A stretch of 25,175 nucleotides of DNA from a virus (taxonomy: Duplodnaviria; Caudoviricetes): the IMG/VR virus record IMGVR_UViG_3300016471_000446, positions 1 through 25,175 of that record, one strand, 5' to 3'. Under the pieces are notes generated by a model, which saw only the letters and a list, made by a program, of their open reading frames with translations, was not told the origin of the DNA and did not search any database. Shown here one piece after another: positions 1 to 20,581 of the stretch. The first letter of the stretch is position 1; every line of letters starts with the position of its first letter. The translations under genes and the position numbers were made by a program.

Positions 1-2
1 TG

Positions 3-137: not shown

Positions 138-162
138 TCCTTATGACCCTCGCAAGCTGACC

Positions 163-864: not shown

Positions 865-908
865 GGCCACGACCGGCCTAGAATCGACCCAACAGGAGGA
901 CCCTCCAC

Positions 909-2324: not shown

Positions 2325-2347
2325 ACCATCACCACGAGGACTGACCC

Positions 2348-3138: not shown

Positions 3139-3278
3139 GGCGGGCAGTGCTGAGCCTGTCGCTGCTCACCGGCTGGGGCCTGGCGGACATTGAGGGGATG
3201 GAGATCGATGACTTCTGGGCGTTCCTCGAGGATGCCCAGGTGCTCCAGAATGAGATCAAGGAGGGGATGGTGCAATGA
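3111..3278 (+). CDS. gpE'-like -1 frameshift extension of the tail chaperone
   Basis: The -1 frame reads ...LRRAVLSLSLLTGWGLADIEGMEIDDFWAFLEDAQVLQNEIKEGMVQ*, with the gpE'-type GW-x3-I-x2-M-x5-W pattern. Its TGA overlaps the tape measure ATG (ATGA). A G5 run is at 3111-3115. Confidence 0.75.
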   Translation, partial: GGQATGRGLRRAVLSLSLLTGWGLADIEGMEIDDFWAFLEDAQVLQNEIKEGMVQ

Positions 3279-5362: not shown

Positions 5363-5364
5363 CC

Positions 5365-6294: not shown

Positions 6295-6503
6295 GCCAGG
6301 TCTACGTCACCCGCCAGTTCGACATGGTCGACCTCATCTGCTGGCGCTACTACGGCCGCACGCAGGGAACGGTCGAGGCGGTGCTGGCGGTGAACCAGAA
6401 CCTGGCGGACCTGGCCCCGATTCTGCCCGAGGGCCTCCGCATTCTGCTGCCGGACCTGCCAGCACCTGACACCACCGAGACCCTCAGGATCTGGAGCCCA
6501 TGA
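6291..6503 (+). CDS. Tail protein X (P2 gpX, LysM-like)
   Basis: 70 aa with DMVDLICWRYYG...VEAVLAVNQNLA...LPEGLRILLP. Confidence 0.93.
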   Translation: MSQVYVTRQFDMVDLICWRYYGRTQGTVEAVLAVNQNLADLAPILPEGLRILLPDLPAPDTTETLRIWSP

Positions 6504-7960
6504 CCACCCCGGCGTTCCGCATCGTCGTCGATGGCAGCGACGTCACCGCGCAGATCAAGGATCGACTCGTCAGCCTGCGCGTCACCGACGAAGCCGGGCA
6601 GGTGTCGGACAGCTGCGAGATCACGCTGGATGACCGCGAGAAGCGGATGCCGATGCCCAGGACTGGCGCATGGGTGCGGGTGTGGATGGGCTACAGCACC
6701 GGCGGGAAGCTGCCGGTCTACATGGGCGCCTTCGCCGTTGATGACTGCGACCTCAGCTGCGGCCCACGGTCGATGGTGATCCGCGCCACTGCTGCTGCCA
6801 CGGCTCCAGAGCTGGTGAAGGAGCAACGAACCGAGGCCTGGCACAACACCACCCTGGGACAGATCGGGGCCAAGATCGCGCAGCGCAACGGACTCCAGCC
6901 CGTGTTCAAGGGCAACCTGGCGAGCATCGAGATCAAGCACGAAGACCAGACGAACGAGAGTGACCAGTCGTTCCTCACCAGGCTGTCGGAGAAGATCCGA
7001 GCGACGATCAAGCCGGCCGACGGCAAGCTCGTCTTCCAGCCGCGCGGCACCGGCGAGGGGCTGCAGCAGGACTTCACCGTGAAGGAGACGGAAGTGTCGA
7101 CTTGGCGGGCGAACGTGAAAAACCGCGGCGCCTACGGTGAGGTGGAGGTGCGCTACCTGGACCGCCCGAGCCAGAAGGAGAAGACGAAGAAGGCGGGGCA
7201 GAAGGGGAAGCTGCCGACGTACCAGGAGAAGCAGCTGGCAAAGAATGAGGAGGAGGCACAGAAGCAGGCCGAGTCGAAGTTGCAGAGCCTCCAGTCCGGA
7301 GAGGTGCGGATCAGCCTCACCATGCCTGGCCGGCCAGACATCAGCGCTGAGGGGCTGATCACGCTCGAGGACTTCCGGCCGGAGGTGAATGGGACGTGGA
7401 ACGTGAAGCAGATTGAGCACACCATCGACAGCCAGGGGTATCGCACCTCGATCGAATGCGGAACGAAGGGAGAGGAGAACGACGACTGGACGCTGGGTGA
7501 GGTTGGCGGCGGCAGCGGCACCCTCGGCACGCCAGGGCAGAACAACGGCAAGCCAGCCGGCGTGAAGTCGAACCTCATCGCACGGTCGGCCGAGCAGCTG
7601 CGTGGGATGAACACCAGGGGCGGGCCTGACGGCGGCAACAATGCTTGCCTCTTCGCCGTGAACCGGGTACTGAGGAACGCCGGCATCACGCCGCCGTGGG
7701 GCAACAGCAACTACGTCCCGACGGCGCAGCAGGTGCTCGCCGGTGGCGCCGGCACACTGCTGTCGGGCCCCGAGCCTGGCGCGATCGCGATCATGCGTGA
7801 CTACGGCAACCCTCCCTACCCCCACGTTGGTGTCGTCGGAACTGATGGCAGCACGATCATCAGCAACAGCTCCTCCCGCGGCACGTTCTCCTGGGCCGCC
7901 GGCGAAGGCAGCTACACCTCCACCTACGGTCGAACCCCTCTCTACTACCGACTCCGGTAG
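6500..7960 (+). CDS. P2 gpD-like baseplate hub fused to a C-terminal CHAP/NlpC-P60-like peptidase domain
   Basis: N-terminal gpD motifs (RLVSLRVTDEAGQVSD, DQTNESDQSFLTRL), then a Gly-rich linker, then NACLFAVNRVL...PEPGAIAIM...PHVGVV with Cys/His as a candidate catalytic pair. Confidence 0.85.
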   Translation: MTTPAFRIVVDGSDVTAQIKDRLVSLRVTDEAGQVSDSCEITLDDREKRMPMPRTGAWVRVWMGYSTGGKLPVYMGAFAVDDCDLSCGPRSMVIRATAAATAPELVKEQRTEAWHNTTLGQIGAKIAQRNGLQPVFKGNLASIEIKHEDQTNESDQSFLTRLSEKIRATIKPADGKLVFQPRGTGEGLQQDFTVKETEVSTWRANVKNRGAYGEVEVRYLDRPSQKEKTKKAGQKGKLPTYQEKQLAKNEEEAQKQAESKLQSLQSGEVRISLTMPGRPDISAEGLITLEDFRPEVNGTWNVKQIEHTIDSQGYRTSIECGTKGEENDDWTLGEVGGGSGTLGTPGQNNGKPAGVKSNLIARSAEQLRGMNTRGGPDGGNNACLFAVNRVLRNAGITPPWGNSNYVPTAQQVLAGGAGTLLSGPEPGAIAIMRDYGNPPYPHVGVVGTDGSTIISNSSSRGTFSWAAGEGSYTSTYGRTPLYYRLR

Positions 7961-7969
7961 CATCCGACA

Positions 7970-8257
7970 GTGAGCACCGCGGCGATGCCTGACCACGACA
8001 CGACGCACGGTGACATCCTGCGTGCGATCGGCAACCTCGAAGGGAAGCTGGATGCCATCCACTCCACGATGGCCAACAACCGCGCCGACATCGTCGAGGC
8101 CTTCAGGCGGTTGAGCCAGGCGGAGCAACGCATCGCCCAGGGCGTCATCCTGGCTGTCGTCGTGTCGCTCGTCATGCCTGTCGTGGTGGTGATGGTCGCG
8201 CCGCGCCTAGAGTTAGGTCCGGAGCATCCCGTCCCTCACTCCAGCACCAGGCCATGA
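7970..8257 (+). CDS. Small coiled-coil protein with one C-terminal transmembrane helix (possible holin/lysis accessory)
   Basis: HGDILRAIGNLEGKLD coiled coil followed by hydrophobic GVILAVVVSLVMPVVVVMVA. Confidence 0.6.
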   Translation: MSTAAMPDHDTTHGDILRAIGNLEGKLDAIHSTMANNRADIVEAFRRLSQAEQRIAQGVILAVVVSLVMPVVVVMVAPRLELGPEHPVPHSSTRP

Positions 8258-8763
8258 TCGGTCCCACCAAGCGCCCACAGGATTTCGGCTTCCGTCCCAA
8301 CGACAGCCACATCCTCGTCAACGACGTCACCGAGCGGGCCCGCGCGTTCTCGGCCGCCGGCAAGCTCCTCTGGGACGTTCCTGCCCTCGGCCGCGGCCAG
8401 GGTGCCGACACTGACTGGGCTGGCGTCGGCACCGACACCCCGCCAGGCCTCTACGTCATCGGCCAGATCTACCGCGACTACGAGGCCGACCCCACCCCGC
8501 CCTACTCCCGCACCGCCATCGCCTACGGCTGGTACTCGTTCGACCTCGAGGAGCTCGAAGGCCAGGAGGGCCGCTACGGCAGGGCCGGCATCATGATCCA
8601 CGGTGGTGGCACCGCCTGCGGGTGGCCCGGGGCCTGGGAGCCGAAGCAGCCGCTGGTCCCCACCCTCGGCTGCGTCCGGATGTACAACCAGGACCTGCGC
8701 GATCGGCTGTTGCCCCTCACCGCCGCCGGCAAGGTGTTCGTCTCCGTCTACCAGGAAGGCTGA
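8254..8763 (+). CDS. L,D-transpeptidase (YkuD)-like catalytic domain protein
   Basis: DTPPGLY, GIMIHGGG and TLGCVRM give the His...Cys signature of the YkuD fold. Confidence 0.8.
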   Translation: MIGPTKRPQDFGFRPNDSHILVNDVTERARAFSAAGKLLWDVPALGRGQGADTDWAGVGTDTPPGLYVIGQIYRDYEADPTPPYSRTAIAYGWYSFDLEELEGQEGRYGRAGIMIHGGGTACGWPGAWEPKQPLVPTLGCVRMYNQDLRDRLLPLTAAGKVFVSVYQEG

Positions 8764-8764
8764 G

Positions 8765-9310
8765 GTGGAGCTGCGTGACTTGATTCGGATCTACCCCGGC
8801 ACCCTCTCGCCGGATGCGTGCCAGCAGCTGATCGACGGCTTCGAGGCCCGGTCGGATCGGCACGTCATCCACCAGGGCGACGGCCCCCGCTTCGCTGAGC
8901 TAAACCTGACGCAGGAGTGGCTGGACGGCCATGCCATGGCCTTTGGCGCCATCCTCCCCCAGTTCGAGGCCTACTCGAGGGAGCTGCAGATCGGCCCGCA
9001 GCAGTGGCCCGCTGAGCTGGCGTTCGAGGAGCTGCGGCTGAAGCGCTACCGGCCTGGTGGTGATGACCGGTTCGATGAGCACGTCGACGTCCAGGACCAC
9101 GCGAGCGCGCGGCGGTTCCTTGCCGCACTGCTCTACCTCAACGACGTCCAGGACGGGGGCGAGACCGACTTCCCGCTGTGGCGACAGGCGATCCGACCGA
9201 GCGCCGGTAGCCTGGTGGTGTTCCCCCCGCTCTGGCCCTGGCTGCATGCCGGCCGGCCCCCGCTCAGTGGTCCGAAGTGGATCCTGAGCACCTACCTCCA
9301 CTACACCTGA
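8765..9310 (+). CDS. 2OG-Fe(II) oxygenase (prolyl-4-hydroxylase-like)
   Basis: HVD (HxD), LLYLNDV-x-DGGETDF, distal HAG and KWILSTY. GTG at 8765, just after the upstream stop, is preferred to the ORF-track start at 8603. Confidence 0.9.
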   Translation: MELRDLIRIYPGTLSPDACQQLIDGFEARSDRHVIHQGDGPRFAELNLTQEWLDGHAMAFGAILPQFEAYSRELQIGPQQWPAELAFEELRLKRYRPGGDDRFDEHVDVQDHASARRFLAALLYLNDVQDGGETDFPLWRQAIRPSAGSLVVFPPLWPWLHAGRPPLSGPKWILSTYLHYT

Positions 9311-9321
9311 GGATCATCACC

Positions 9322-9474
9322 ATGGAGCACTATCTCAAGCCCGAGTACATCGGCTTCGCCCTGTTCATCGTGTCCGAGATCATCGGCATGGCGAAGGTGC
9401 GTCCCAACAGCGTCACCCAGCTGGCTCTTCAGCTGCTCCGCCGGGCCTTCCCCTACCAGCCCGGCCGGTTCTGA
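9322..9474 (+). CDS. Small membrane protein, putative holin
   Basis: 50 aa, MEHYLKPEYIGFALFIVSEIIGMAKVRPNSVTQL..., coupled to the lysozyme gene by a TGATG overlap. Confidence 0.55.
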   Translation: MEHYLKPEYIGFALFIVSEIIGMAKVRPNSVTQLALQLLRRAFPYQPGRF

Positions 9475-9908
9475 TGGTTGATCGCAATGCGATGGTGCGG
9501 CAGCTGCGCCTCCATGAGGGGGAGCGGCTGCGGCCGTACCGCTGCACCGCTGGGAAGCTGACGATCGGCGTCGGCCGCAACCTGGAGGACCGCGGCATCA
9601 GCGCCGAGGAGTCGGCCATGCTGCTGTCAAACGACATCAGCCGAGAGGAGCGTGAGCTGCTGGCGGCGCTGCCGTGGGTGGCGAAGCTGTCGGAGGTGCG
9701 GCAGCGGGTGCTGCTCGACATGAGCTTCAACCTGGGCCTGCAGGGCCTGCTGGCGTTCAAGCGGACGCTGGCCGCGATCCAGGCGGGGCAGTACCAGCAG
9801 GCGGCGGGAATGATGCTCGAGTCGCTGTGGGCCCGGCAGGTGGGGCAGCGTGCGCAGCGGTTGAGCGAGATGATGGCGACAGGCCAGGTGCCGAAGGAGC
9901 TGGCCTGA
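9474..9908 (+). CDS. Endolysin, GH24 (T4-type) lysozyme
   Basis: LRLHEGERLRPYRCTAGKLTIGVGRNL (catalytic E...T), DMSFNLG, and SLWARQVGQRAQRL. Confidence 0.92.
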   Translation: MVDRNAMVRQLRLHEGERLRPYRCTAGKLTIGVGRNLEDRGISAEESAMLLSNDISREERELLAALPWVAKLSEVRQRVLLDMSFNLGLQGLLAFKRTLAAIQAGQYQQAAGMMLESLWARQVGQRAQRLSEMMATGQVPKELA

Positions 9909-9914
9909 TCGCGG

Positions 9915-10106
9915 TCAGGCCGCCAGCATCCGCCGGACGGTGGTGCGGCTGACGCCGAGGCGGTCAGCAATGGCCTGCTGGGTCATGCCAGCGCGGCGCC
10001 ACCGGCGGGCCCGCTGCTCGCGTGACTCGGTCAACAGGTAGATCACCAGCAGCGGGATGGTGAGGATGGCCAGGAGAGTGGCCAGGAGGCAGGTGAGGGT
10101 GGTCAT
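9915..10106 (-). CDS. Small HTH protein with an N-terminal transmembrane helix
   Basis: About 25 hydrophobic residues, then GMTQQAIADRLGVSRTTVRR (canonical HTH). Confidence 0.8.
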   Translation of the reverse strand: MTTLTCLLATLLAILTIPLLVIYLLTESREQRARRWRRAGMTQQAIADRLGVSRTTVRRMLAA

Positions 10107-10156
10107 TGTGTGGAGTGCGGTGGGGTCGGCGGCGCGCTCGGCCTGCCGATTGGCCC

Positions 10157-10210
10157 AAGGTAGAGCCGCGGCATGGCGCCGCGCCGGTGCATGTCACAAC
10201 TCGTTACACG
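10157..10210 (-). promoter_or_regulatory. HLR1-like box plus -10 (TACCTT) upstream of the TM-HTH gene
   Basis: Box TGTCACAACTCGTTACA at 10192-10208; 29-nt spacer; TACCTT at 10162-10157 on the - strand. Confidence 0.6.
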
Positions 10211-10221
10211 AGCGGCGATGG

Positions 10222-10372
10222 AATCGTTGGGGTCAGGTGACGCCCGACCCCCGAGGCGACCAGCCCTTGTCGCTGGTGGGAGGATCCGGCCCCTGCATCC
10301 GGCTTGTGGGTGGTGGCTGACCCTTGTCGTCAGCGGGAGGATCCGGGCCTCAGCTATCCGGCTTCTGGGCTG
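10222..10372 (-). ncRNA. Candidate structured ncRNA: two tandem ~57-nt units plus a terminal hairpin
   Basis: Hairpins accagc-CCTTGTC-gctggt and gctgac-CCTTGTC-gtcagc share the loop but have different, fully paired stems. Each is followed by gggaggatccgg...atccggctt. A further hairpin ggggtc...gacccc lies at ~10229-10251, and a -10 box is just upstream on the - strand. Confidence 0.55.
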
Positions 10373-10377
10373 CGCAG

Positions 10378-10431
10378 AACATAGCGCCGGTGGATCACAC
10401 CCAGTGGGTGGCTGTTGCAATCCGTCACACA
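10378..10431 (-). promoter_or_regulatory. HLR1-like box plus -10 (TATGTT) upstream of the candidate ncRNA
   Basis: Box TGTTGCAATCCGTCACA at 10413-10429; 29-nt spacer; TATGTT at 10383-10378 on the - strand. Confidence 0.6.
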
Positions 10432-10437
10432 CCCACT

Positions 10438-10617
10438 TCACCCACGACGCACCCCCCGCCGCACGGCGCGATGGATGCGAACGGTGGCAGTTACCGGCCA
10501 GATGGCGCCGGCCAGGCTGGCGCGGGCCCATTCGGCTAGTTCGTTGATGTGGTCCATGCGGACACAGGCGACGGTCGTGATGACCATGGCCCAGACGTAG
10601 ATCTCAATCAAGAACAT
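10438..10617 (-). CDS. Small hypothetical membrane protein (59 aa)
   Basis: MFLIEIYVWAMVITTVACVRMD...LAGAIWPV... is the C-terminal part of the 10438-11124 ORF, with a plausible ATG at 10617. Confidence 0.55.
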   Translation of the reverse strand: MFLIEIYVWAMVITTVACVRMDHINELAEWARASLAGAIWPVTATVRIHRAVRRGVRRG

Positions 10618-10666
10618 GTTAAGAATGCAATGGAAGGCCCGGATAGGCTCCGGGCGGGCCATGGGC

Positions 10667-10768
10667 TCAGATGACTCTGAAGTCGGCGGCGGTGGTGCTG
10701 TTCCGAGTCCACTGCAGCGTGCAGAGAATCTGAGCGTTAGCGCCGCGGGTGCCAGTGAAAGAAGCCAT
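10667..10768 (-). CDS. Possible 33-aa peptide
   Basis: MASFTGTRGANAQILCTLQWTRNSTTAADFRVI* is the first ATG ORF downstream of the 10844 promoter. Confidence 0.3.
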   Translation of the reverse strand: MASFTGTRGANAQILCTLQWTRNSTTAADFRVI

Positions 10769-10809
10769 GATGTCCAATGGTGAAGGGCGGCCAGGTCGGC
10801 CGTGGCCCC

Positions 10810-10878
10810 ATCATCGCGCCACCACCCACCACCACCATCAACCTGTCGCAATCCTTCACACTCAGCCCGCCCTAGACT
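10810..10878. promoter_or_regulatory. Divergent promoter region with an HLR1-like box
   Basis: Box TGTCGCAATCCTTCACA at 10844-10860; GATGAT 28 nt away on the - strand (10815-10810); TAGACT at 10873-10878 on the + strand. Confidence 0.55.
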
Positions 10879-10902
10879 GGCCCATCTCTTGACGCACTCT
10901 CC

Positions 10903-11163
10903 ATGGGTTGGATCGACTGCGCTCTTCCCCTCCACCGGCAGCTCGATGTCGAGCAGGAGGTTCGCACCATCCTCGCCTGCAACGACCTCGAGGCCGTTCG
11001 CAACCTCGCCGCCTTCCTCCTCCGCTACGCCGCACTCCAGACTCACACCTCTGCTCAGCTGGTGAAGCAGCTCGCTGCCGCTGAACACCAGAACGGCCCA
11101 CAGCCGCCGACCGATGAGCACCACCGCTGGGCGCAGGAACTGATGGCAGAACTGCGACCATGA
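10903..11163 (+). CDS. Small helical protein, possibly NblA-like (phycobilisome degradation adaptor)
   Basis: 86 aa; LPLHRQLDVEQEVR...DLEAVRNLAAFLLRYAALQTHTSAQLVK resembles the NblA two-helix pattern by eye. It is the only convincing + strand gene in the - strand arm. The ORF is likely real; the function is tentative. Confidence 0.4.
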   Translation: MGWIDCALPLHRQLDVEQEVRTILACNDLEAVRNLAAFLLRYAALQTHTSAQLVKQLAAAEHQNGPQPPTDEHHRWAQELMAELRP

Positions 11164-11191
11164 AAAAACCGCCGGTGTCTTACGCCGGCGG
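11163..11191 (-). terminator. Rho-independent terminator
   Basis: The - strand reads ccgccggcg-taaga-caccggcgg-tttttt, located between convergent genes. Confidence 0.85.
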
Positions 11192-11217
11192 CTCGGTCCC
11201 TTGCACCTCTTCCTGCG

Positions 11218-11328
11218 TCAGCGTAGCAGGGCCTCAACCGACCGCGCGCGCTGCACGGTCGGGCCATGGTCATAGATCACGGTGGCAATCACCAGGACAG
11301 GGATCAGGAAGGTCAGGAAGCGGATCAT
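11218..11328 (-). CDS. 36-aa membrane peptide
   Basis: MIRFLTFLIPVLVIATVIYDHGP...; ATGA overlap with the upstream gene; ends just before the terminator. Confidence 0.55.
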   Translation of the reverse strand: MIRFLTFLIPVLVIATVIYDHGPTVQRARSVEALLR

Positions 11329-11519
11329 GGGTAGATGGCACGGATGAGTTCGGCGGTTTCGCTGCTGCCGCCAAAGCGCTGGTACAGCCAGGTGGCCAGC
11401 TCGTCGCAGACGGCACGTGCTTCGCGCCTGCACAGCTTGCAGGGTGTTGAGCATTGGATGCACCCACCAAATGGGCACAGCCTGAGGGCCAGGCGCTCGG
11501 AGATCGGACGGTCAGTCAT
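11325..11519 (-). CDS. Cys-rich hypothetical protein (64 aa)
   Basis: CPFGGCIQCSTPCKLC cluster; overlaps both neighbouring genes. Confidence 0.7.
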   Translation of the reverse strand: MTDRPISERLALRLCPFGGCIQCSTPCKLCRREARAVCDELATWLYQRFGGSSETAELIRAIYP

Positions 11520-11757
11520 AGATCAGCTCCGCTCCGGTGTCGTGGGACCAGCAGAGTGCATCGGTGAGGACGTCGTCTGTTGTAACTGTGGAGCCCAGCT
11601 CGCCCCTGCTGGTGCTGTCCAGCAGGTAGAAGCCGTTGCCGCTGAGGCCGAGGATGAGGCCGGTGCCTGTTTCGATGTCAGCGCTTTTGCTGAGGGCGAT
11701 CTCATCGCCAGGGTTTGCGGTGTCGAGGAAATGCTCGACTCGTTGTTGAAGGGTCAT
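11512..11757 (-). CDS. Hypothetical protein (81 aa)
   Basis: MTLQQRVEHFLD...; ATG downstream of the 11834 promoter. Confidence 0.6.
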   Translation of the reverse strand: MTLQQRVEHFLDTANPGDEIALSKSADIETGTGLILGLSGNGFYLLDSTSRGELGSTVTTDDVLTDALCWSHDTGAELIYD

Positions 11758-11799
11758 CGGAGAAGGGGTGGGGTGGGGGCCCGGGTGGGCCGTGGACAC

Positions 11800-11852
11800 A
11801 TCATCACCGCCGCCGCCCCTCACGGCTCCGACCTGTCACAATCCTTCATCAT
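11800..11852 (-). promoter_or_regulatory. HLR1-like box plus -10-like GATGAT
   Basis: acc-TGTCACAATCCTTCATC with the box at 11834-11850, near-identical to the 10844 box; GATGAT at 11805-11800 after a 28-nt spacer. Confidence 0.55.
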
Positions 11853-12006
11853 CCGATGGCAGGTGGAGCTCCGCCTGCCATCGGTCCTCGCACCACCGGC
11901 ATCGCTCCCCCACGCACGCGCGGTAGGCCAGCTGCCCATCAGGCAGCTGCAGCAGCTCGATGCTGCCGCCGTCCTCTCGGTCGATCCGGTACGCCGTCGT
12001 GGTCAT
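11836..12006 (-). CDS. Hypothetical protein (56 aa)
   Basis: MTTTAYRIDREDGGSIELL...YRACVGERCRWCEDRWQAE; ATGA overlap with dcd. Confidence 0.65.
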   Translation of the reverse strand: MTTTAYRIDREDGGSIELLQLPDGQLAYRACVGERCRWCEDRWQAELHLPSDDEGL

Positions 12007-12521
12007 CCCTTGCTTCCCTGCACGCCGCCATCGCCGTTGTACCGGCCGGTCTCGGCATAGCTGCGGTCTGGTTCCGCCGCCAGCTGCATGAACACCATCT
12101 GGCCGATCTTCATTCCAGGCCACAGGCTGATCGGATGGAGCTGTCGGATGTTCCTCAACTCCAGCGTCAGCCGGCTGCCGTGCCACCCGGGGTCGCACCA
12201 GCCGGCCAGCAGGTGTTGCAGGCCCTCTCGTGCCCTGGAGCTCTTCAGCACAAACTTCGCCGCCACCCAGTTCGGCAGCGCGAACGTCTCCTGCGTGCTC
12301 GCCAGAACAAACTGCCCCGGCTGCAGCAGGTACGGCCGCTCCTGGCTGTGGCCCCCCAGGGGGTAGGGGGCCATCTCCAAGGTTCCGGCCCGCTCGATCA
12401 GCAGGTCATCGCCCAGCAGCAGGTCATAGCTCGCTGGGTTCAGCTGCTCCCTCCGAAACGGGCTGATCATCCCCCGCTCCGCTGCTGCTGCGATCATCCA
12501 GTCCGGCAACACTGCTCCCAT
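12003..12521 (-). CDS. dcd: dCTP deaminase
   Basis: QLNPASYDL, LQPGQFVLASTQE, LKSSRAREG, AGWCDPGWHG, LTLEL, GMKIGQMVF and Y...GRY. The start at 12521 (MGAVLPDW) fits the family length. Confidence 0.9.
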   Translation of the reverse strand: MGAVLPDWMIAAAAERGMISPFRREQLNPASYDLLLGDDLLIERAGTLEMAPYPLGGHSQERPYLLQPGQFVLASTQETFALPNWVAAKFVLKSSRAREGLQHLLAGWCDPGWHGSRLTLELRNIRQLHPISLWPGMKIGQMVFMQLAAEPDRSYAETGRYNGDGGVQGSKG

Positions 12522-12663
12522 CGTTCTCCGTGGTGGTGGTGGTGGTGTGGGTCGCCCACAGCCCGGTGTAGAGGCTGTGAAGCGGATGGGACGGGTCATG
12601 CCGTCCGTCGATCTCATAGAGGTGCTCCAGCCTGTCCTGGCGCTCCTGGTCGTCGTGTCTCAT
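12424..12663 (-). CDS. Hypothetical protein (DGR..P.HP.H..YTGL type)
   Basis: MRHDDQERQDRLEHLYEIDGRHDPSHPLHSLYTGLW; ATGA-coupled to the upstream gene. The tail overlaps dcd by 98 nt. Confidence 0.6.
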   Translation of the reverse strand: MRHDDQERQDRLEHLYEIDGRHDPSHPLHSLYTGLWATHTTTTTTENDGSSVAGLDDRSSSGAGDDQPVSEGAAEPSEL

Positions 12664-12869
12664 GCGGCCTCGATCCTGCAGCTCCAGCCGTGAACAGCCC
12701 GCAGGATCAGCTGGCGGTTGAGGGCCACGTCAATCGACTCCGCCAGCCAGGCTCGGTCGCGATCGGTTCCCCACTCCAGACCCTCGATCCATGGCGAGGT
12801 CTCATCCTGCCGCGCTGGCAAGGGGGCGCAAAGCCAGCAGGCTCCGCGGCGCAGAACGAACTTCCTCAT
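12660..12869 (-). CDS. Hypothetical protein (69 aa)
   Basis: MRKFVLRRGACWL...; ATGA overlaps at both ends. Confidence 0.65.
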   Translation of the reverse strand: MRKFVLRRGACWLCAPLPARQDETSPWIEGLEWGTDRDRAWLAESIDVALNRQLILRAVHGWSCRIEAA

Positions 12870-13069
12870 CGCCACCTCATGATCAGCTTCGTGCTCAGGT
12901 GGATCCGCGGCATGGCATAGCGGTCGCCGTTCTCGGCTTCGACTTAGTAGTACGGGAAGCCGCCATGAGCCGCCGGCAGTTCACGGATGACCTTGAACTC
13001 CACGTCCTCGGGCCAGTTGTAGGAGAAGACCTTCTGGCCGACGGTGATCGGGATGGTGCGGCGTGCCAT
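12866..13069 (-). pseudogene. 67-codon gene interrupted by an in-frame TAA
   Basis: MARRTIPITVGQKVFSYNWPEDVEFKVIRELPAAHGGFPYY*VEAENGDRYAMPRIHLSTKLIMRWR*. The TAA is at 12946-12944, and the distal TGA overlaps the next ATG. Confidence 0.65.
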
Positions 13070-13341
13070 CACTCGTCCTCTCCTTCGAGGCGATTGCAGA
13101 CGAGCATGGGCTAACCGGCGATGTCGCGCCAGCTGTCGGCATAGTTGGGGTCGCCATTGATAATCCGGCCGATCTTGTGGCAGATCATGTCGAGGGCTTC
13201 ATGTTGATCAGGAGCCAGGAATTGGCCACTGGGCATGCTGGTGGCAATCACCTGCTTTAGGGTCTGGCTGAGTTCAGCGTGGGTGGTGAACCTGCCATAA
13301 CGCTGGCCGCGCTCGGCGAGGGTTTCGTTGATGTCAGTCAT
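13069..13341 (-). pseudogene. DUF6378-like protein with a premature TAG in the DIAGY motif
   Basis: TLAERGQRYG...EALDMICHKIGRIINGDPNYADSWRDIAG*PMLVCNRLEGEDE*. The TAG is at 13113-13111, and the distal TGA overlaps the next ATG (TGATG). Confidence 0.75.
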
Positions 13342-13431
13342 AGTGGCGAAGGGTGGATTGCAAAGGAACATGCCTGACCCACAAGAAGGGTCATAGATCT
13401 GCAGATTAGGCGGTGAATACCAGGTAGTCAC
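13342..13431 (-). other. 30-codon methyltransferase-motif remnant in frame with DUF6378
   Basis: VTTWYSPPNLQIYDPSCGSGMFLCNPPFAT; its GTG overlaps the methyltransferase stop (GTGA). Confidence 0.6.
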
Positions 13432-14816
13432 AACTGGGCCGGCAGGACCTGCCCTTTGATCTTGGCGTAGCGGCGGTTCAATGCCGCCCAATCGTCACGA
13501 TTCTTAAAGCGGAAATGCACGGTGCCCTTCTTGTGCGCCTTGAACTCGAAGAACCCCCAGTCGTACCACTCAGCAGGCACCAGCGGTTGCGGGGCCTTGG
13601 GCTGGCCCATCTCCTCGTACCGCTTGCCAGTGATGAAGCACAGCGCCTTGATCAGGTCCTGGATCTCATCGGCCTGCTTGCCATAGGTCTGCACTCGCAC
13701 CCCACGACCATCCCAGCTCAGCTCCGCCAAGTACGCGCGGATGAACCTCTGGTTGATCATGTAGCCGCTGTTCGTCACCCAGCCCTCAACCCCGTAGCGG
13801 TTCTCCTTCGTGTGCATGGTCAGGTTGTCGATGGCCTGCTCCACCGCACGATCAACGCGCTGCTCCTGCGTGCCGGCGACGATCTGCAGCATCCGCCACA
13901 GGTTCCGCTCGGTGAACGGGATCTTGGACTGCTCCTCAACGAAGGCGTTGATGTCCTTGGCCAGCTGGCTGGTGGCCATCTGTACCGGCAGGAACTCGGC
14001 GCACACGTGCTTCCATGCCGCCTTCTGCAGATTCTTCCGGAACCGGTTGCGGGTGACCGCTGCACCATCGACGGTGACCTGCAGGCCCAGGTCTTGGCCG
14101 AAAAACCCGTCGAGCACGGTGCGCAGCCTGGTGCCGGCCTCCACCTGTTCATCGAAGATCCGGCAGGCCTCGACGTAGCGGTTGACGATGTCGCGGCTGC
14201 GGCGGTAGGGGATGATGCCCTCCCCCTGGGCCTCGATGTCGTCGGGGCCCAGGTAGAAGCCGTCGAACTCTCCGGAATCTCCGGATCGTTGCCCCGGCTT
14301 GCGCAGCCGCACCAGGCCGACGCTGACCCGAGTCGGGCGTTCGGCAGTGCTGAAGCACTCGCCCAAATCTTCGAGGCTGCCGTAGGCCTCGATCAGCTTG
14401 GCCAGCTGCAGCTGCAGGCCTCGGAACTGACCCGAGACGGTGTTCCAGTTCGCCAGGGCCACGATCTCGCAGCCTGGCGGGGCGATCTCCCAGGCGTGGA
14501 GGATGTGGGCCTCATCCGCCGAGAACGGCGGGTTCATCACGATGAGGTCGATGTGGCTGACGGCCTCGGGCTGCACCTGCATGAAGTCCGGGCAACGGTG
14601 AGACGGCACCGCGCCTCTGATGCTGGTGAGAATGTCCCGCAGGTGGGGCTCCTTCTCGCACCACAGCACCTCCGCTGCGCCGCGGTCCAGGCACTCGCGC
14701 ACCAGGTTTCCGCTGCCGGCGCTGGGCTCCAGCACCGTCTTGCCCCGCAGGTCGAGCGGGTCGAGCATCTCGGCCGCCACCTCCGGCGGGGTGGGGTAGA
14801 AGTCGGGGTTGAACAT
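13428..14816 (-). CDS. DNA N6-adenine methyltransferase with a DUF4942-like C-terminal domain
   Basis: DFYPTP (motif X), VLEPSAGSGNL (motif I), IVMNPPF (motif IV) and C-terminal FEFKAHKKGTVHFRF. Start MFNPDF at 14816. Confidence 0.88.
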   Translation of the reverse strand: MFNPDFYPTPPEVAAEMLDPLDLRGKTVLEPSAGSGNLVRECLDRGAAEVLWCEKEPHLRDILTSIRGAVPSHRCPDFMQVQPEAVSHIDLIVMNPPFSADEAHILHAWEIAPPGCEIVALANWNTVSGQFRGLQLQLAKLIEAYGSLEDLGECFSTAERPTRVSVGLVRLRKPGQRSGDSGEFDGFYLGPDDIEAQGEGIIPYRRSRDIVNRYVEACRIFDEQVEAGTRLRTVLDGFFGQDLGLQVTVDGAAVTRNRFRKNLQKAAWKHVCAEFLPVQMATSQLAKDINAFVEEQSKIPFTERNLWRMLQIVAGTQEQRVDRAVEQAIDNLTMHTKENRYGVEGWVTNSGYMINQRFIRAYLAELSWDGRGVRVQTYGKQADEIQDLIKALCFITGKRYEEMGQPKAPQPLVPAEWYDWGFFEFKAHKKGTVHFRFKNRDDWAALNRRYAKIKGQVLPAQL

Positions 14817-15220
14817 CAGTCCGCCCCCGCCTCGATCACCGCACCCCGGCGCACCCGCGGGACGCTGGGCTTCCGGGGTGGCTCGGTTTTCATCTCCGCC
14901 ACCACCTGGCTCCATGCCTCCAGGCGGTCAGGAGCCATGGCCTCGCCAGACTGCAACCCGGCAAACTCCGCATCCCAGGCCTTGGCAAAGCCCACGGCGC
15001 GGTCCAAGCTGCCCATGCAGCAGCCCATGGACAGGCCTGTGGCAATGTGAGTCAGCCGCCAGTAGCCCTGGACCTGGCCGAAGCTCACTTCGCCATTGTC
15101 TGGATCAACGTGCAGCGGCTTGTGAATGGCGATGCCTTTGCCGGCCCAGTGCGGCTTGATGTTGATCACCCGCTCACCGTGGTCGCGGGTCATCATGCGG
15201 ATCGGAATGGTGCGGGTCAT
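14816..15220 (-). CDS. Hypothetical protein (134 aa)
   Basis: Coupled at both ends; contains WRLTHIATGL. Confidence 0.7.
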   Translation of the reverse strand: MTRTIPIRMMTRDHGERVINIKPHWAGKGIAIHKPLHVDPDNGEVSFGQVQGYWRLTHIATGLSMGCCMGSLDRAVGFAKAWDAEFAGLQSGEAMAPDRLEAWSQVVAEMKTEPPRKPSVPRVRRGAVIEAGAD

Positions 15221-15501
15221 GGCTGCACCCCGCGCATGTGGTCCTCAACCTTCCGGATCAGCCACTGCGGCACGGTCGGCGACTTCGGCACCCAGCGCCT
15301 GTGGTTCCAGACGCCTGCGCGAGTCACGGCAGCGGGATCGCGCGGCAGCCACTCGGCGATCTGATCCACGAGCTTGCGCTTGCTGGTGCGGCGCAGGAAC
15401 CGCACCAGCCTGGGGTTGCCGCTCATCAGCGGATCCTGCATGACGATCCACTCAGGGCCGCCAGAAGGATGTGGCTCGGAGCGGTAGATGATGCTGGCCA
15501 T
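15217..15501 (-). CDS. Hypothetical protein (94 aa)
   Basis: MASIIYRSEPHPSGGPEW...; start and stop overlap the neighbours. Confidence 0.7.
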   Translation of the reverse strand: MASIIYRSEPHPSGGPEWIVMQDPLMSGNPRLVRFLRRTSKRKLVDQIAEWLPRDPAAVTRAGVWNHRRWVPKSPTVPQWLIRKVEDHMRGVQP

Positions 15502-15716
15502 CACTCCACCTCCAGCGCGATGCCGCGCTTGGCCAGGTAGCTGACGCAGGCGGCTGCGTTCTGGCTGGCGGTGCCGGCTGCCCACTGGATGACGAGGGTG
15601 CCGCTCCGGCGGCGAATCTGCCAGTCACTACCGCTGGTCTGAAGGTGTAAGCCGGTCTGTTGCTCGAGGCGGTTGCTCAAGGCCAGCATGTCGATGCCGT
15701 TGAGGATGTAGTCCAT
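15501..15716 (-). CDS. Hypothetical protein (71 aa)
   Basis: MDYILNGIDMLAL...; first gene after the 15795 promoter. Confidence 0.65.
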   Translation of the reverse strand: MDYILNGIDMLALSNRLEQQTGLHLQTSGSDWQIRRRSGTLVIQWAAGTASQNAAACVSYLAKRGIALEVE

Positions 15717-15760
15717 GGTCAAGAGGTGAAAGGGAGAAGGCGGGCTGCCCCGCTGATGCA

Positions 15761-15813
15761 ATCATCGGGCGCCACGCCCCTCCCTCCCATGACCTGTTAC
15801 AGATCTTCACGCG
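15761..15813 (-). promoter_or_regulatory. HLR1-like box plus -10-like GATGAT
   Basis: acc-TGTTACAGATCTTCACG with the box at 15795-15811; GATGAT at 15766-15761 after a 28-nt spacer. Confidence 0.55.
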
Positions 15814-16063
15814 GTCCGATCTGCCACAGCCAGTAGCCCGGACGCCCCTGGCCGCCGCGGTCGTACTCCACCAGTCCTGCCCGCTTCAGACGGCTCATTC
15901 GCCAGCTGACCGACCCGTAGCTCACACCCCATCGGGCCTGCAGCTCCTCGAACGTCACGTGGCGGGGGATCTCACCCCCCACCAGCAGCGCCAGCTCCAG
16001 CACGTCCAGCACCGTCGTGTCGGTGTGCTGGGCCCGGAGGCCCAGGATCTTCGTGAGCTCCAT
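15797..16063 (-). CDS. Winged-helix DNA-binding protein
   Basis: TFEELQARWGVSYGSVSWRMSRLKRAGLVEY followed by a beta wing. Confidence 0.75.
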   Translation of the reverse strand: MELTKILGLRAQHTDTTVLDVLELALLVGGEIPRHVTFEELQARWGVSYGSVSWRMSRLKRAGLVEYDRGGQGRPGYWLWQIGPREDL

Positions 16064-16065
16064 GG

Positions 16066-16467
16066 TCAGAACGGGATGTCGTCGTCGTCCAGCGCATCGG
16101 CCGCAGCTGCTGGGGCCGCCTGCTGCGCTGGCAGCTGCTGCGCTTCACCTTCCTCATCCCGCTTGCTGCCCAGCAATTGCAAGCGGTCCACAGCGACCAC
16201 CATCTTGCTGCGCTCTTCGCCCGTCGACCGATCGGTCCACTTCTCCATCTTCACCGAGCCGGTCACACCGATCAGGCTGCCCTTGCGCACGTAGTCGACA
16301 ACTACCTGGGCCTGCTTGCCCCAGATCTGCAATGGGAACCACACGGTCTCCGCATCTCGCCCTCGGCCATTGACTGCCAGGTTCACGTTCGCCACCATCG
16401 TGCCGCTCTCGAAGTAACGCGCCTCAGGATCGCGGCCTGCGCGTCCCACCAATGTGATGCTGTTCAT
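16066..16467 (-). CDS. ssb: Single-stranded DNA-binding protein
   Basis: MNSITLVGRAGRDPEARYFESG (cyanobacterial-type N-terminus), YVRKGSLIGVTG, and acidic tail DDDDIPF. Confidence 0.95.
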   Translation of the reverse strand: MNSITLVGRAGRDPEARYFESGTMVANVNLAVNGRGRDAETVWFPLQIWGKQAQVVVDYVRKGSLIGVTGSVKMEKWTDRSTGEERSKMVVAVDRLQLLGSKRDEEGEAQQLPAQQAAPAAAADALDDDDIPF

Positions 16468-16685
16468 GTTCCAGATTGCGATTGAACATTGTCGGAAGAC
16501 AGCCAGCCAGGGGCTAACCTCTCCCACGCTTGAATCCCATCGAATGGGTACAACACCCGGCTGCCAACACGGATGAACGGCGGGCCCTTGCCCGCACTTC
16601 GCCAGTTCGCCAGCGTCTGATCACTCAGACGCCAGCGATCTGCCACCTCTTTGCTCGTCAAGTATTGCCTCTCACTACTACTCAT
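16464..16685 (-). CDS. Xis/AlpA-like HTH protein
   Basis: YLTSKEVADRWRLSDQTLANWRSAGKGPPFIRVGSRVLY. Confidence 0.88.
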   Translation of the reverse strand: MSSSERQYLTSKEVADRWRLSDQTLANWRSAGKGPPFIRVGSRVLYPFDGIQAWERLAPGWLSSDNVQSQSGT

Positions 16686-16696
16686 GACTCCTCTCC

Positions 16697-17416
16697 TCAG
16701 AATGGATCTTCACGGACCAGTTCGGCCTGGATAGGCTGTTCCTCGACAACTTCCGGCTCTGACACTGCTGCGGTCTCGGTCGGGGGCGCAGCTGCCGCAA
16801 TCTGGCGGTTGAGGTCCGCCACCACGCTGCCGCTGCTCACCGGTGCCTTCGTGTCGCGCACCGTCACCTGCTCCACCTCTTCCTTCACCCCCAGGCCGAA
16901 CAAGACTTCAGGGATGTAGAGGTTGATCAGGCGCGTCGCGGCACGCCACCGCAGCATCTGCTCCGGGATCGACTTGTACTTCGGGTTTCGAGTCCAACCG
17001 TCGGCTGCGGCCTCCTTCATCGTCACTGTGGCAGTGATCACCTCCCCGGTCTCGCGCAGCGACGCGCTAGCGGTCACCTCCAAGGCATCGCCCTGTCCCT
17101 TTGACTTCCAGGTGATCGGGCCCTGGAGCAGGCCGCTCTTGTTGGCGCGGCTGATCGCAAACCGGCTGCTGGTGTTCGGCCGGCCGTTGATGACGCTCAT
17201 TTCCTGGAACAGCAGCATCGGGTGCTCACCCAGCTGCTCGGCATAGAGCATGGCCACCAGGCACGCCTCGGGCTTGCCCTGGAAGTGGGGCGGCACCATC
17301 CCGGACATCGAGAACGCCTTGGCCAGTCGGTAGCGGTGGTCGAGGGCGGCACCATCGTGGAGGAAGGCCAGGGCCTGGTTGTTGGTGGTGGTCGTCAGGG
17401 CTGTGGATTCGGTCAT
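16697..17416 (-). CDS. RecT/Red-beta-like single-strand annealing protein
   Basis: SGMVPPHFQGKPEAC, MSVINGRP and PEQMLRWRA...YIPEVLFGL; lies between a RecE-like gene and ssb. Confidence 0.8.
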   Translation of the reverse strand: MTESTALTTTTNNQALAFLHDGAALDHRYRLAKAFSMSGMVPPHFQGKPEACLVAMLYAEQLGEHPMLLFQEMSVINGRPNTSSRFAISRANKSGLLQGPITWKSKGQGDALEVTASASLRETGEVITATVTMKEAAADGWTRNPKYKSIPEQMLRWRAATRLINLYIPEVLFGLGVKEEVEQVTVRDTKAPVSSGSVVADLNRQIAAAAPPTETAAVSEPEVVEEQPIQAELVREDPF

Positions 17417-17814
17417 GGAGTGTCTCCGGGGATGACCCGGGGTGAGGGGGACTGGGGCTTGACTGATTCACCAGTGAACGGGTTGGTGGGCCGCCGATCA
17501 GGCGATGGGTCGGGGTAGTTGATTGAGCGAGTGTCACGGGGGATAAGACGTGGCTTTGGTGCGACGGGGCCGTGCCTACTGGTGTTGCGGGCAGTGGGGC
17601 CTTCGTCGAAACGGACGGGGCGCCATACGGCCACGCTGTCAAGCCGGTGGTCGTCTCGGTGGATGTCGCGGAACTTGCGCGGACGTGCTTCGCTGCTGTC
17701 AGGAGCAATGTTTTTGTGGCTGAACCGGCTGAATCGTGGATGCCACGGCCAGCCGCACAGCACCGCGCTGCAGGTGGCGCCGATGGCGAACCATGCGAGG
17801 CGGGGATCAATCAC
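17413..17814 (-). CDS. Hypothetical protein with a hydrophobic N-terminus and Pro-rich C-terminus
   Basis: GTG at 17814 (MIDPRLAWFAIGATCSAVL...); fills the RecE-RecT gap with an ATGA overlap. Confidence 0.55.
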   Translation of the reverse strand: MIDPRLAWFAIGATCSAVLCGWPWHPRFSRFSHKNIAPDSSEARPRKFRDIHRDDHRLDSVAVWRPVRFDEGPTARNTSRHGPVAPKPRLIPRDTRSINYPDPSPDRRPTNPFTGESVKPQSPSPRVIPGDTP

Positions 17815-18616
17815 GGCACCACCCCGGCAGCTCGATCGGCTCCTGCACCAGGTCGCCGTAGCCAGGCCACACGCCGGTCGCCCAGCACTCCGCCAGCAGC
17901 GCCATCGCGGCCTCGATCCGGCGCTGGCCGGCGGCAATCATCGCCCCGGAGGCGGGATAGACGGCCACCGCAAACGGTCGCACGTTCTCGACCGCGATCG
18001 TCAGGAACTGCTCCGCCTCCAGCGCACCCTGGTTCCAGGCCGCCTGCACGTGGTAGTCCAGGTTGGCGATCGACTTGGCGAACTCCACCCTCGAGGCGTC
18101 CTTCGTGGTCTTGACGTCGACCACCAGCCGCCGGTCTTCGCTGTGCCAGTCCGGTCTGGTCTTGCACGCCAGGCCCGTCACCGGATCGGTCCACGTGTAG
18201 CTGGCCTCCCGCCGGCCGGGGAGCTCCAGCAGGAACCGCGCGGCTGGATGCTTCCGCACCGCATCGGCCATCCGGCGCACTTGGTCGGCATCCTCGGGGC
18301 TGAGCACCAGCTTGCCGGCGCTCTCGCGCTCAAACTCCGCCGCAAGCTCCTTGCCGACCCTCGTCCGACGGTCGAACGCATGCGGCGGCACTGCGATGGT
18401 GCTGTCCCAGAGCTCCGGCTCCAGCACCGCGGTGTGCAGGGCGGTGCCCAGCTTCATGGGGTCGGTCGGCTCGCGCTTCTCGCGGTCCTCCGCCAGGAAC
18501 TGGTCGGAGTAGTGCAGCGGCGATCGGCCGAGCACCTTTATCTGGCTCGGCGAGACCGCTTTGAGCGCGTGGTAGGCCTCGTTCGTGAGGCCGGGGTGAT
18601 GAGTGAGGTCAGGCAT
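17807..18616 (-). CDS. RecE/exonuclease VIII-like PD-(D/E)XK nuclease (DUF3799 type)
   Basis: NEAYHA...SPSQIK, LGTALHTAVLEP, CKTRPD, VDVKTT and YHVQAAW. Confidence 0.92.
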   Translation of the reverse strand: MPDLTHHPGLTNEAYHALKAVSPSQIKVLGRSPLHYSDQFLAEDREKREPTDPMKLGTALHTAVLEPELWDSTIAVPPHAFDRRTRVGKELAAEFERESAGKLVLSPEDADQVRRMADAVRKHPAARFLLELPGRREASYTWTDPVTGLACKTRPDWHSEDRRLVVDVKTTKDASRVEFAKSIANLDYHVQAAWNQGALEAEQFLTIAVENVRPFAVAVYPASGAMIAAGQRRIEAAMALLAECWATGVWPGYGDLVQEPIELPGWCRD

Positions 18617-18660
18617 AGGCCATACCCTGTGAATAGCGGGGGTCAGGCATCACCCTAAAC

Positions 18661-18732
18661 ACCTCCCCGCACTTACCGATGCTTCCCGCTGCTTCCCGCA
18701 ACATACTGTCATAATCCTTTGATTTCGCGGGA
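18661..18732. promoter_or_regulatory. Divergent control region with 10-bp-phased repeats
   Basis: acctccccgc/acttaccgat/gcttcccgct/gcttcccgca, plus an inverted gcggga at 18727, between the leftward recombination and rightward replication operons. Confidence 0.45.
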
Positions 18733-18782
18733 TATTCAGGCATCCTTCTGTCACGGTCAACCCCCTCTTCACAGGCATTCGC

Positions 18783-20183
18783 ATGCCAGTCTCGCTTCGT
18801 CCCTATCAACAGCAGCTGCTCGAGGACATCCGCTCACAGATGCGCCTCGGTCATCGCCGCATCCTCGCCGTCATGCCCACAGGCGCTGGCAAGGGCACGA
18901 CCATCGCATTCATGGTCAGCGAGGCCGCCCGCCGCGGCCATCGCGTCCTGATCCTTGCGCACCGCGCTGAGCTGATCGCCGACCTCTCACAGCGCATCCA
19001 CGGCCTCGGCATCAACCACGGCATCCTCGCCAACGGCTACCGCGAAGATCTTCGCCAGACTGTGCAGGTTGGATCAGTCCAGACCGTGGTCCGACGCCTC
19101 GACCGCATCCCGCCGCCGTCCATGGTGATCCAGGACGAGGCCCACCACCTCGTGGCGGGCAACATGTGGGGCCGGATCATCGAGACGTGGCCCAGCTCCT
19201 TCCTGATCGGGAAGACCGCCACGCCTGAACGGCTTTCAGGTGAAGGCCTTGGGCAGGGTCATGGCGGCTTCTTCACCACCATGGTGCTGGGCCCCGACGC
19301 TGCCTGGCTCACCGCGGAAGGCTTCCTCGTCCCCGCCCGGATCTTCGCCCCGCCAGGCATTGACCTCTCGGCGGTGAAGCGCTTCGACACCGCCAAGGGC
19401 CGCCACGACTCCGGCACCATCCTTCGCCAGGGCCAGGCCATGGGTGATGCCGTCTTTCACTACCGCCGCACCATCGAGGACCATCACAACGGCACCGCCA
19501 TCGCCTTCTGCTGCTCCGTCGATGACGCCGATGCTCTCGCCGAGGCCTTCCGCTCTGACGGCATCGCCGCCGCCCGTCTCGACGGATCCATGGACCGTGG
19601 TGAGCGTCGCCGGCTGATCGCTGACCTGGGGGCCGGCGTCCTGAAGGTGCTCACCAGCTGCGACATCATCAGCGAGGGCACCGACATCCCATCAGTCACC
19701 GGCGCGATCCTGCTTCGCCCCACCGAATCGCTGGGCCTCCACCTCCAGCAGGTGGGCCGCGTGCTGCGCCCCTGCCAGGGGAAGACGCACGCGATCATCA
19801 ACGACCACGTTGGCAACAGCCTTCGCCATGGCCTGCCGACCGATCCACGCGAGTGGTCCCTCAAGGGCCGACCCAAGCGCAAGCGGGCCGCCAGCGACGC
19901 CCTGCCGGTGCGCGTCTGCCCTCGCTGCTTCGTCACCCTGGCCTCGACGGTGCCCGTCTGCACTGAATGCGGCCACGCCTTCGAGTCGCAGCGGCGTAAG
20001 CTCACGGTCGTCGATGGCAACCTCCAGGAGCTCACTCCACAGCAGCTCGCACAGCAGCGTCGCCGCGCCATCGGCCAGGCGCGCACTCGCGAGGAGCTCG
20101 AGGCCATCCGCTTGGAGATGGGATACAAGCCAGGATGGGTCGATCACATTCTGAGGGAACGCGGTGCCAGCTTGTTCCGATGA
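18783..20183 (+). CDS. Superfamily 2 DEAH helicase (RadD/YejH-like) with a C-terminal zinc finger
   Basis: LRPYQ, MPTGAGKG, DEAHH, TATPER, SEGTDIP, QQVGRVLR and CPRC...CTEC. Confidence 0.95.
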   Translation: MPVSLRPYQQQLLEDIRSQMRLGHRRILAVMPTGAGKGTTIAFMVSEAARRGHRVLILAHRAELIADLSQRIHGLGINHGILANGYREDLRQTVQVGSVQTVVRRLDRIPPPSMVIQDEAHHLVAGNMWGRIIETWPSSFLIGKTATPERLSGEGLGQGHGGFFTTMVLGPDAAWLTAEGFLVPARIFAPPGIDLSAVKRFDTAKGRHDSGTILRQGQAMGDAVFHYRRTIEDHHNGTAIAFCCSVDDADALAEAFRSDGIAAARLDGSMDRGERRRLIADLGAGVLKVLTSCDIISEGTDIPSVTGAILLRPTESLGLHLQQVGRVLRPCQGKTHAIINDHVGNSLRHGLPTDPREWSLKGRPKRKRAASDALPVRVCPRCFVTLASTVPVCTECGHAFESQRRKLTVVDGNLQELTPQQLAQQRRRAIGQARTREELEAIRLEMGYKPGWVDHILRERGASLFR

Positions 20184-20511
20184 ATCCGCGATCCAGCAGG
20201 CGATCCGCCTCCTCTCCCGCGGGCCCGTCCGCCTCTTCCGCAACAACACCGGTGCTCTCAAGGACCAGACCGGCCGCCTCGTGCGCTACGGCCTCTGCAC
20301 CGGCTCCAGCGACCTCATCGGCTTCCGCACCATCACCATCACGCCCGACATGGTCGGCCAGCGCATCGCCGTCTTCACCGCCATCGAGGTCAAGGACCGC
20401 GGCCGCGCCACCCCCGAGCAGCAGGCTTTCATCGCCATGGTCCAGGCCGCCGGTGGTCTTGCCGGCATCGCTCGCTCCGTCGACGACGCACGCTCCATCC
20501 TTGGCATGTAA
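20164..20511 (+). CDS. VRR-NUC domain nuclease
   Basis: ESAIQQAI, LFRNNTG, GSSDLIG and AIEVK..GRATPEQQAF. Confidence 0.9.
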   Translation: MPACSDESAIQQAIRLLSRGPVRLFRNNTGALKDQTGRLVRYGLCTGSSDLIGFRTITITPDMVGQRIAVFTAIEVKDRGRATPEQQAFIAMVQAAGGLAGIARSVDDARSILGM

Positions 20512-20558
20512 CCGAGTGTTACAACCCACGGATTTGCCCGCCACCCTCGGGCTACGGT
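20505..20558 (+). promoter_or_regulatory. HLR1-like/palindromic box plus -10 (TACGGT)
   Basis: TGTAACCGAGTGTTACA at 20507-20523; 29-nt spacer; TACGGT at 20553-20558; upstream of the operon leading to PrimPol. Confidence 0.6.
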
Positions 20559-20581
20559 CCCTCTGCCACTCCCACCCACCC

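Follow-up and report, generated by a model that had tools for sequence, protein, structure and literature searches.

A conserved HLR1-like box at predicted phage promoters as a probable target of the host regulator RpaB

Which factor switches on the non-structural genes of a freshwater phage whose predicted promoters have no clear -35 element? This question was raised by a DNA stretch of 25,175 nucleotides (the window; IMG/VR virus record IMGVR_UViG_3300016471_000446, positions 1 to 25,175). The initial annotation had described six promoters in the window, each with the same 17-bp box at a fixed distance from a putative -10 hexamer. It had proposed that the box was an HLR1-like site of RpaB, the OmpR-type light/redox regulator of cyanobacteria.

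Based on the comparisons described here, it was concluded that the box is very probably an activating HLR1 site. The same box was found at the same distances upstream of photosystem I genes in the family of the likely host, and the predicted phage promoters lack a -35 element. Hence, host RpaB probably switches the virus genes on, in a manner that would depend on light and redox state.

The box and its predicted promoters in the window

All six 17-mers and their hexamers were confirmed in the sequence: TACCTT, TATGTT and TACGGT followed the box at 29 nt, and GATGAT followed it three times at 28 nt. The six predicted promoters stand; however, the count was incomplete, as a conserved seventh box at 18697-18713 had been missed. 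The boxes and the elements connected with them were as follows (ORF, open reading frame; HTH, helix-turn-helix; SSB, single-stranded DNA-binding protein).

10192..10208, minus strand: box 1; predicted -10 TACCTT at 10157-10162, 29 nt away; heads the small membrane-anchored HTH gene 9915-10106
10413..10429, minus strand: box 2; predicted -10 TATGTT at 10378-10383, 29 nt away; heads a two-unit stretch of ~59-nt repeats at about 10210-10371
10844..10860, minus strand: box 3; predicted -10 GATGAT at 10810-10815, 28 nt away; heads ORFs 10667-10768 and 10438-10617
11834..11850, minus strand: box 4; predicted -10 GATGAT at 11800-11805, 28 nt away; heads small ORFs 11512-11757 and 11325-11519
15795..15811, minus strand: box 5; predicted -10 GATGAT at 15761-15766, 28 nt away; heads ORF 15501-15716
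20507..20523, plus strand: box 6; predicted -10 TACGGT at 20553-20558, 29 nt away; heads ORF 20582-20818, two small ORFs and the primase-helicase gene 21167-23383
18697..18713, minus strand: box 7; predicted -10 TAGGGT at 18652-18657, 39 nt away; heads the genes of exonuclease VIII, a RecT-like protein, an excisionase-like HTH protein, SSB and HTH 15797
16464..16685, minus strand: the excisionase-like HTH gene downstream of box 7
18721..18737, plus strand: dyad GATTW-N7-WAATC with one mismatch, overlapping the predicted helicase -10 GATATT at 18731-18736

Box 3 was also located 12 nt upstream of TAGACT (10873-10878), which belongs to ORF 10903-11163 on the divergent side, and one half-site of box 7 fell where the predicted helicase promoter, which is divergent to it, would have its -35. 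The dyad, present in one copy in the window, was conserved in the helicase upstream regions of relatives; it is a candidate second operator, perhaps for a phage-encoded regulator. The unit headed by box 5 ran through the methyltransferase-like gene (13428-14816) toward the dCTP deaminase gene (12003-12521).

Each of the six sites, when omitted in turn from the matrix, ranked 3rd to 8th among 50,318 positions. A matrix trained on sites from relatives gave nine window matches with a score of at least 12, all nine with a -10-like hexamer at 28, 29, 39 or 40 nt, while 150 Markov shuffles of the window gave a mean of 0.03 and a maximum of 1 such site. None of the seven window sites tested was identical to any training site. 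The training sites had been chosen with the six-site matrix, so this shuffle test was partly circular, which does not apply to the test of spacing in relatives. Window sites 13493 and 24199 were not accepted, as both lay inside coding sequence and were doubtful; a box at the place of the latter was found in 0/22 relatives. A scan for consensus sigma-70 promoters gave one site compared with 1.2 expected, and none at the boxes. No RNA data set was listed as containing the sequence; two runs that held a small share of it were probably DNA and carried no information on transcription starts.

Comparison with related phages, HLR1 and host genes

Further, the six-site matrix was applied to 102 related loci and gave 367 matches, compared with 80 in one Markov shuffle. 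An xAnnnT hexamer stood at 28 nt in 59 and at 29 nt in 115 of 259 distinct matches; any other offset between 0 and 59 nt was observed 17 times at most. The initial annotation had named the box frequency relative to shuffled sequence and the conservation of spacing as checks, and both held.

The matrix was retrained on 165 sites from relatives. It recorded 252 distinct boxes in loci L001-L095, with the hexamer at 28/29 nt in 188 and at 39/40 nt in 32 more (220 in total). The pairing of TAnnnT with 29 nt and of GATGAT with 28 nt was true of the window but was not a rule, since GATGAT of relatives stood at 29 nt in 31 sites and at 28 nt in 17. The reported absence of a clear -35 was borne out: none of the 188 boxes reached 5/6 matches to TTGACA in the -35 region, and 12 reached four.

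Identity between sites was 0.65 in the box and 0.33 in the spacer, and at the 186 sites followed by an ORF the first genes represented 66 families. Orthologues of the exonuclease promoter carried the box in 41 of 45 distinct relatives (at 39 nt in 30, 29 nt in 9, 28 nt in 1 and 40 nt in 1). In the 39-nt class the box half-site fell at the -35 of a conserved GATAAT on the helicase side, 17 nt away, which was observed in 28 of these 41. Six complete genomes contained 4-8 sites with box and hexamer each, compared with 0-1 in five shuffles of each, and all except one weak site were located within the non-structural arm. The contrast was modest in an exact-pattern scan of IMG/VR, in which 33 stretches were found at 28/29 nt and 12 at 33/34 nt, with 7 of the 12 at the same places. 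Fifteen of the 33 stretches showed no likeness to the phage family of the window over the fetched flanks; the protein matches of unrelated box-bearing records were best to cyanophages in one case and ambiguous in two.

As read on the strand opposite the gene, the motif over the 220 sites was GT(A/C)ACAAT-CC-KTCACAAW. The divergence of its halves was 0.07 per column as a direct repeat and 0.22 as a palindrome; hence the direct repeat of 10-bp period was upheld, while the suggested palindromic operator was not. A palindromic TGTNA-N7-TNACA reading was likewise rejected, as it fitted 54/220 sites compared with 142/220 for the direct-repeat pattern.

HLR1 consists of two imperfect 8-bp direct repeats with 2 nt between them, KTTACAWW-N2-KTTACAWW (PMC13421787); sites with a centre at -45 to -66 activate, and those at -38 to +23 repress (PMC13421787; PMC6525291). 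The phage consensus agreed with HLR1 except at positions 3 and 13. Counted from the predicted -10 hexamers, the phage 18-mers would span about -43 to -60 and -53 to -70, with centres at about -51 and -61. A Synechocystis table places minus-strand HLR1 sites at -62 to -45 (psaK1), -69 to -52 (psaE) and -70 to -53 (psaC), and a cas10 site at -53 to -70 was tested and was activating in low light (bioRxiv 2023.12.07.570523). The predicted phage positions match both activating classes mapped in Synechocystis, which argues for an HLR1 site read by RpaB. The two spacings, 28/29 and 39/40 nt, differ by one helical turn, as would be expected of an activator facing RNA polymerase.

For the promoters of the likely host, five psa genes and two control genes were examined, with the 30 best loci per gene taken from 41 genomes of the G001 family. 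Loci with a located start and an upstream GC of at least 0.55 were kept, and the phage matrix plus hexamer was scored at fixed offsets against the 95th percentile of shuffles. Scores above this percentile at 28/29 nt were recorded for psaA (25/27), psaE (22/23), psaK (16/17), psaD (8/22) and psaF (2/27). At 39/40 nt they were recorded for psaD (18/22) and psaF (24/27), with 0-1 in the remaining psa genes. The controls gave 1/23 and 0/23 (rpsL) and 1/20 and 0/20 (groES) at the two spacings, respectively, and the wrong offsets of 33/34 and 23/24 nt gave 3/27 at most. The boxes upstream of these five psa genes were near-invariant in the family (loci L110-L260), at two spacings one turn apart, and had 5-9 mismatches of 16 to HLR1. 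The psaK promoters carried GAAGAT/GATGAT at the 28/29-nt offset, as in the phage; at psaF the opposite box orientation scored higher. G001 encodes RpaB (L338, 396 bits against an NCBIfam cut-off of 330).

The phage matrix was also applied to cyanophage Syn9 (NC_008296, 177,300 bases), where the top match scored 23.8 and the next 15.2. The top match lay at about 163352-163370, at the promoter of the hli gene gp209, just after TTGACA-17-TATAAT and thus in a repressor position. A weaker match (11.3) was recorded at 165846, about 100 nt upstream of psbA. No 28/29-nt peak was present among the 79 Syn9 matches of the phage matrix, and the half-site pattern gave 42 matches compared with 44 in the reversed control.

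Predicted activation by RpaB and competing explanations

The proposal of host RpaB gained support from the direct-repeat symmetry, the activating-class positions, the photosystem I boxes of the host family, the Syn9 hli operator and the presence of RpaB in the likely host. It was proposed that, upon phage entry or induction, phosphorylated RpaB already present in the cell would bind each box head-to-tail and recruit host RNA polymerase to the weak -10 elements in the absence of a -35. Activation through the alpha-subunit tail of the polymerase is suggested by the one-turn spacing step. No phage activator would be needed to turn on the accessory, recombination and primase operons. In low light RpaB would be phosphorylated and bound, and the operons would be on. 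In model strains high light leads to the dephosphorylation of RpaB and to its release (PMC13421787), so the output of the phage operons would be expected to drop under high-light stress. At two divergent pairs (10844 and 18697) the -35 region of the promoter facing the other way would lie under the same bound dimer, and that promoter could be repressed.

A wider role, in which RpaB would control the whole early programme as a master switch and the host redox state would decide between replication and lysogeny or dormancy, was considered doubtful. One dimer bound at the exonuclease/helicase junction would activate the recombination genes and shut off the helicase, in the manner of a lambda-type divergent switch. 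The family in question bears an integrase and shows no CI-like repressor of the S24 type: a tyrosine integrase was encoded by 4/5 complete relatives, and the S24 peptidase domain was found in 0/5. The gating of lysis versus lysogeny by the divergent site is speculative.

Several observations weigh against the activation by RpaB. Half-site position 3 was mostly C or A instead of the consensus T, and most sites had 3-4 mismatches of 16 to HLR1 (3-5 in the window). The host promoters were orthologous, so the box at 5/5 psa genes and 0/2 control genes is a test of five genes against two controls and not of 116 independent cases, and host loci of low GC or without a located start had been excluded. 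Loci of the hli family in the host family exceeded the shuffles in just 9/30, with paralogues unsorted. The set of box and hexamer sites was absent from the Synechococcus phages S-LBS1, which encodes its own sigma factor, and S-H1. The assignment of the host itself is indirect, with two exonuclease matches in non-cyanobacterial metagenome-assembled genomes (MAGs). Primase on and helicase off would make no simple switch. Further, a second RpaB-like protein of G001 exceeded the same cut-off (361 bits against 330), and homologues of phage gene 16464 occurred in 6/6 complete relatives and in 56/103 sequences scanned.

The main binder could be this second G001 protein, which we take to be SrrA-like. 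A high-light-induced paralogue of similar recognition helix might turn the phage on under stress, and the deviation of position 3 from the Synechocystis consensus would suit it. PMC13421787 describes a de-repression of SrrA in high light and, in vitro, its preferential phosphorylation by NblS; the same paper presents the photosystem I class as RpaB-activated in both model strains, one of them without SrrA. Since the host photosystem I promoters also show the same position-3 variants and spacings as the phage, the paralogue was regarded as an unlikely main binder. Another host factor, such as RpaA or a different OmpR-type regulator, or RNA polymerase itself could read the box as an upstream element without a light switch. 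Each of five host-family genomes searched contained 9-14 OmpR-type domains, and some promoters are common to RpaA and RpaB (PMC13421787). The matrix nevertheless picks photosystem I promoters and the hli operator, textbook RpaB classes of which one is activating and one repressing, and NtcA and CRP were rejected because their patterns matched 0/220 sites; this explanation was held to be quite improbable.

If a phage-encoded activator bound the boxes, the likeness to HLR1 would be convergent. Its candidates are an unrecognised small protein, as most small early ORFs had no family, and the excisionase-like HTH 16464, the sole phage DNA-binding candidate common to all six complete relatives; excisionases are known to bind direct repeats. 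The dimeric phage regulator offered as an alternative in the initial annotation was weakened for HTH 9915 and 15797, both absent from three of the six complete relatives (G044, G045 and G047, each still with 4-5 boxes), but not for 16464. As 16464 is downstream of box 7 and of a promoter without a -35, its first expression would need a pre-existing factor. The same box and spacings were moreover observed in host genes, at the Syn9 hli promoter and in the 15/33 unrelated IMG/VR loci. A search of five unrelated box-bearing records did not find 16464, a result of little weight with 4/5 of them less than 90% complete. Overall, a phage activator was given a low probability. The boxes as chance matches or as passive remnants copied with gene cassettes were very improbable, and this explanation is already largely refuted. 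Recombination could spread cassettes, so the sites are not fully independent, but the shuffles fell far below the observed sites both for the window (mean 0.03 against nine) and for each of the six complete genomes, and the spacing was kept although the spacers had diverged.

Activation by RpaB would place the boxes close to the activating HLR1 of the Hik33/NblS-RpaB regulon, known from photosystem I genes and Synechocystis cas10. Both are 18-bp imperfect direct repeats of 10-bp period, often on the minus strand, with the same spacings at host-family psa genes; the centre near -51 or -61 of the known sites is also the one predicted for the phage boxes. Unlike the known sites, the phage boxes precede recombination, replication and unknown small genes, have mostly C or A at position 3, and are putative binding sites. 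Cyanophage genomes have been reported to contain HLR1 (Riediger et al. 2019, citing a 2018 list of 83 sites), and the same motif was found here at the Syn9 hli promoter. The Syn9 site follows a full -35/-10 at a host-derived photosynthesis gene, in a repressor position, whereas the window boxes lie upstream, in place of the -35, and each genome of the family has such boxes ahead of 4-8 non-photosynthetic units.

Host PhoBR controls genes of cyanophage S-PM2d, replication genes included (PMC10976474), and this is likewise an OmpR-family two-component regulator acting on phage genes. That system concerns a phosphate signal, few modulated genes and a T4-like lytic phage and has experimental support, whereas the integrase-bearing family of the window would respond to light/redox over most of the early arm, as predicted from sequence. 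NtcA sites have been predicted in T4-like cyanophages (PMC3037559). Activator-type RpaB/HLR1 sites at phage early promoters were not found in the literature on RpaB/HLR1 and cyanophages, the psbA promoter and phage lysogeny, a search mostly outside subscription journals. Both the occurrence of HLR1 in cyanophages and the control of phage genes by host two-component systems have been published; the literature searched gave no example of activator-type boxes across a whole early arm. The upstream element of Syn9 early genes described by Doron et al. in 2016 is reportedly a longer inverted repeat; at one Syn9 site it was observed to end 29 nt before the -10 hexamer.

Energy supply or adsorption is the usual explanation for why cyanophage infection depends on light. 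If RpaB acts as proposed, the phage would sense the photosynthetic state of the host directly at transcription. A further outcome of the comparison is the form, with its spacings, that the probable RpaB site takes in this lineage in front of picocyanobacterial photosystem I genes; in addition, the box is a sequence mark that may help to link uncultured phages to cyanobacterial hosts.

Phage family, likely host and gene surroundings

PHROGs matches for 40 ORFs identified the window as a phage fragment with the following arms.

1..9908: contractile-tail genes and an endolysin
9915..18616, minus strand: small accessory genes, dCTP deaminase, methyltransferase-like gene, SSB, excisionase-like HTH, RecT-like protein and exonuclease VIII
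after the 9915-18616 arm, plus strand: helicase, endonuclease and primase-helicase

The closest cultured matches were Synechococcus phages S-H1 and S-LBS1, the primase of the latter being 68% identical to that of the window. The exonuclease had five matches in the genome collection, three in Cyanobium/Synechococcaceae MAGs and two in non-cyanobacterial ones; the Cyanobium match was a 59.5-kb contig, seemingly phage throughout. Based on the phage contigs binned into Cyanobium/Synechococcaceae MAGs and on the likeness to S-LBS1, the host is likely a picocyanobacterium.

The integrase of G043, G044, G046 and G047 ended the accessory arm, with a box immediately after it (in G044 one without a hexamer). 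No integrase was present among the window ORFs scanned at the corresponding place, while the excisionase-like gene was retained. Sigma-70 region 2 was found in 0/5 complete relatives. The late genes included a 2OG-Fe(II) oxygenase and a phosphoesterase/exonuclease-like gene (window 8768-9310 and 24244-25116).

The stretch 10210-10371 on the minus strand, directly behind box 2, consisted of two ~59-nt repeat units with a hairpin at the end and had no clear ORF; it is possibly a non-coding RNA. An Rfam search of 9800-21200 gave a single chance snoRNA match (E 0.3) and none for these repeats, and their core pattern was present in just two IMG/VR stretches, one of them 84% alike (L069). The small HTH protein encoded at 9915-10106 had a hydrophobic N-terminus, and its gene was patchily present beside the endolysin, with a box upstream in relatives.

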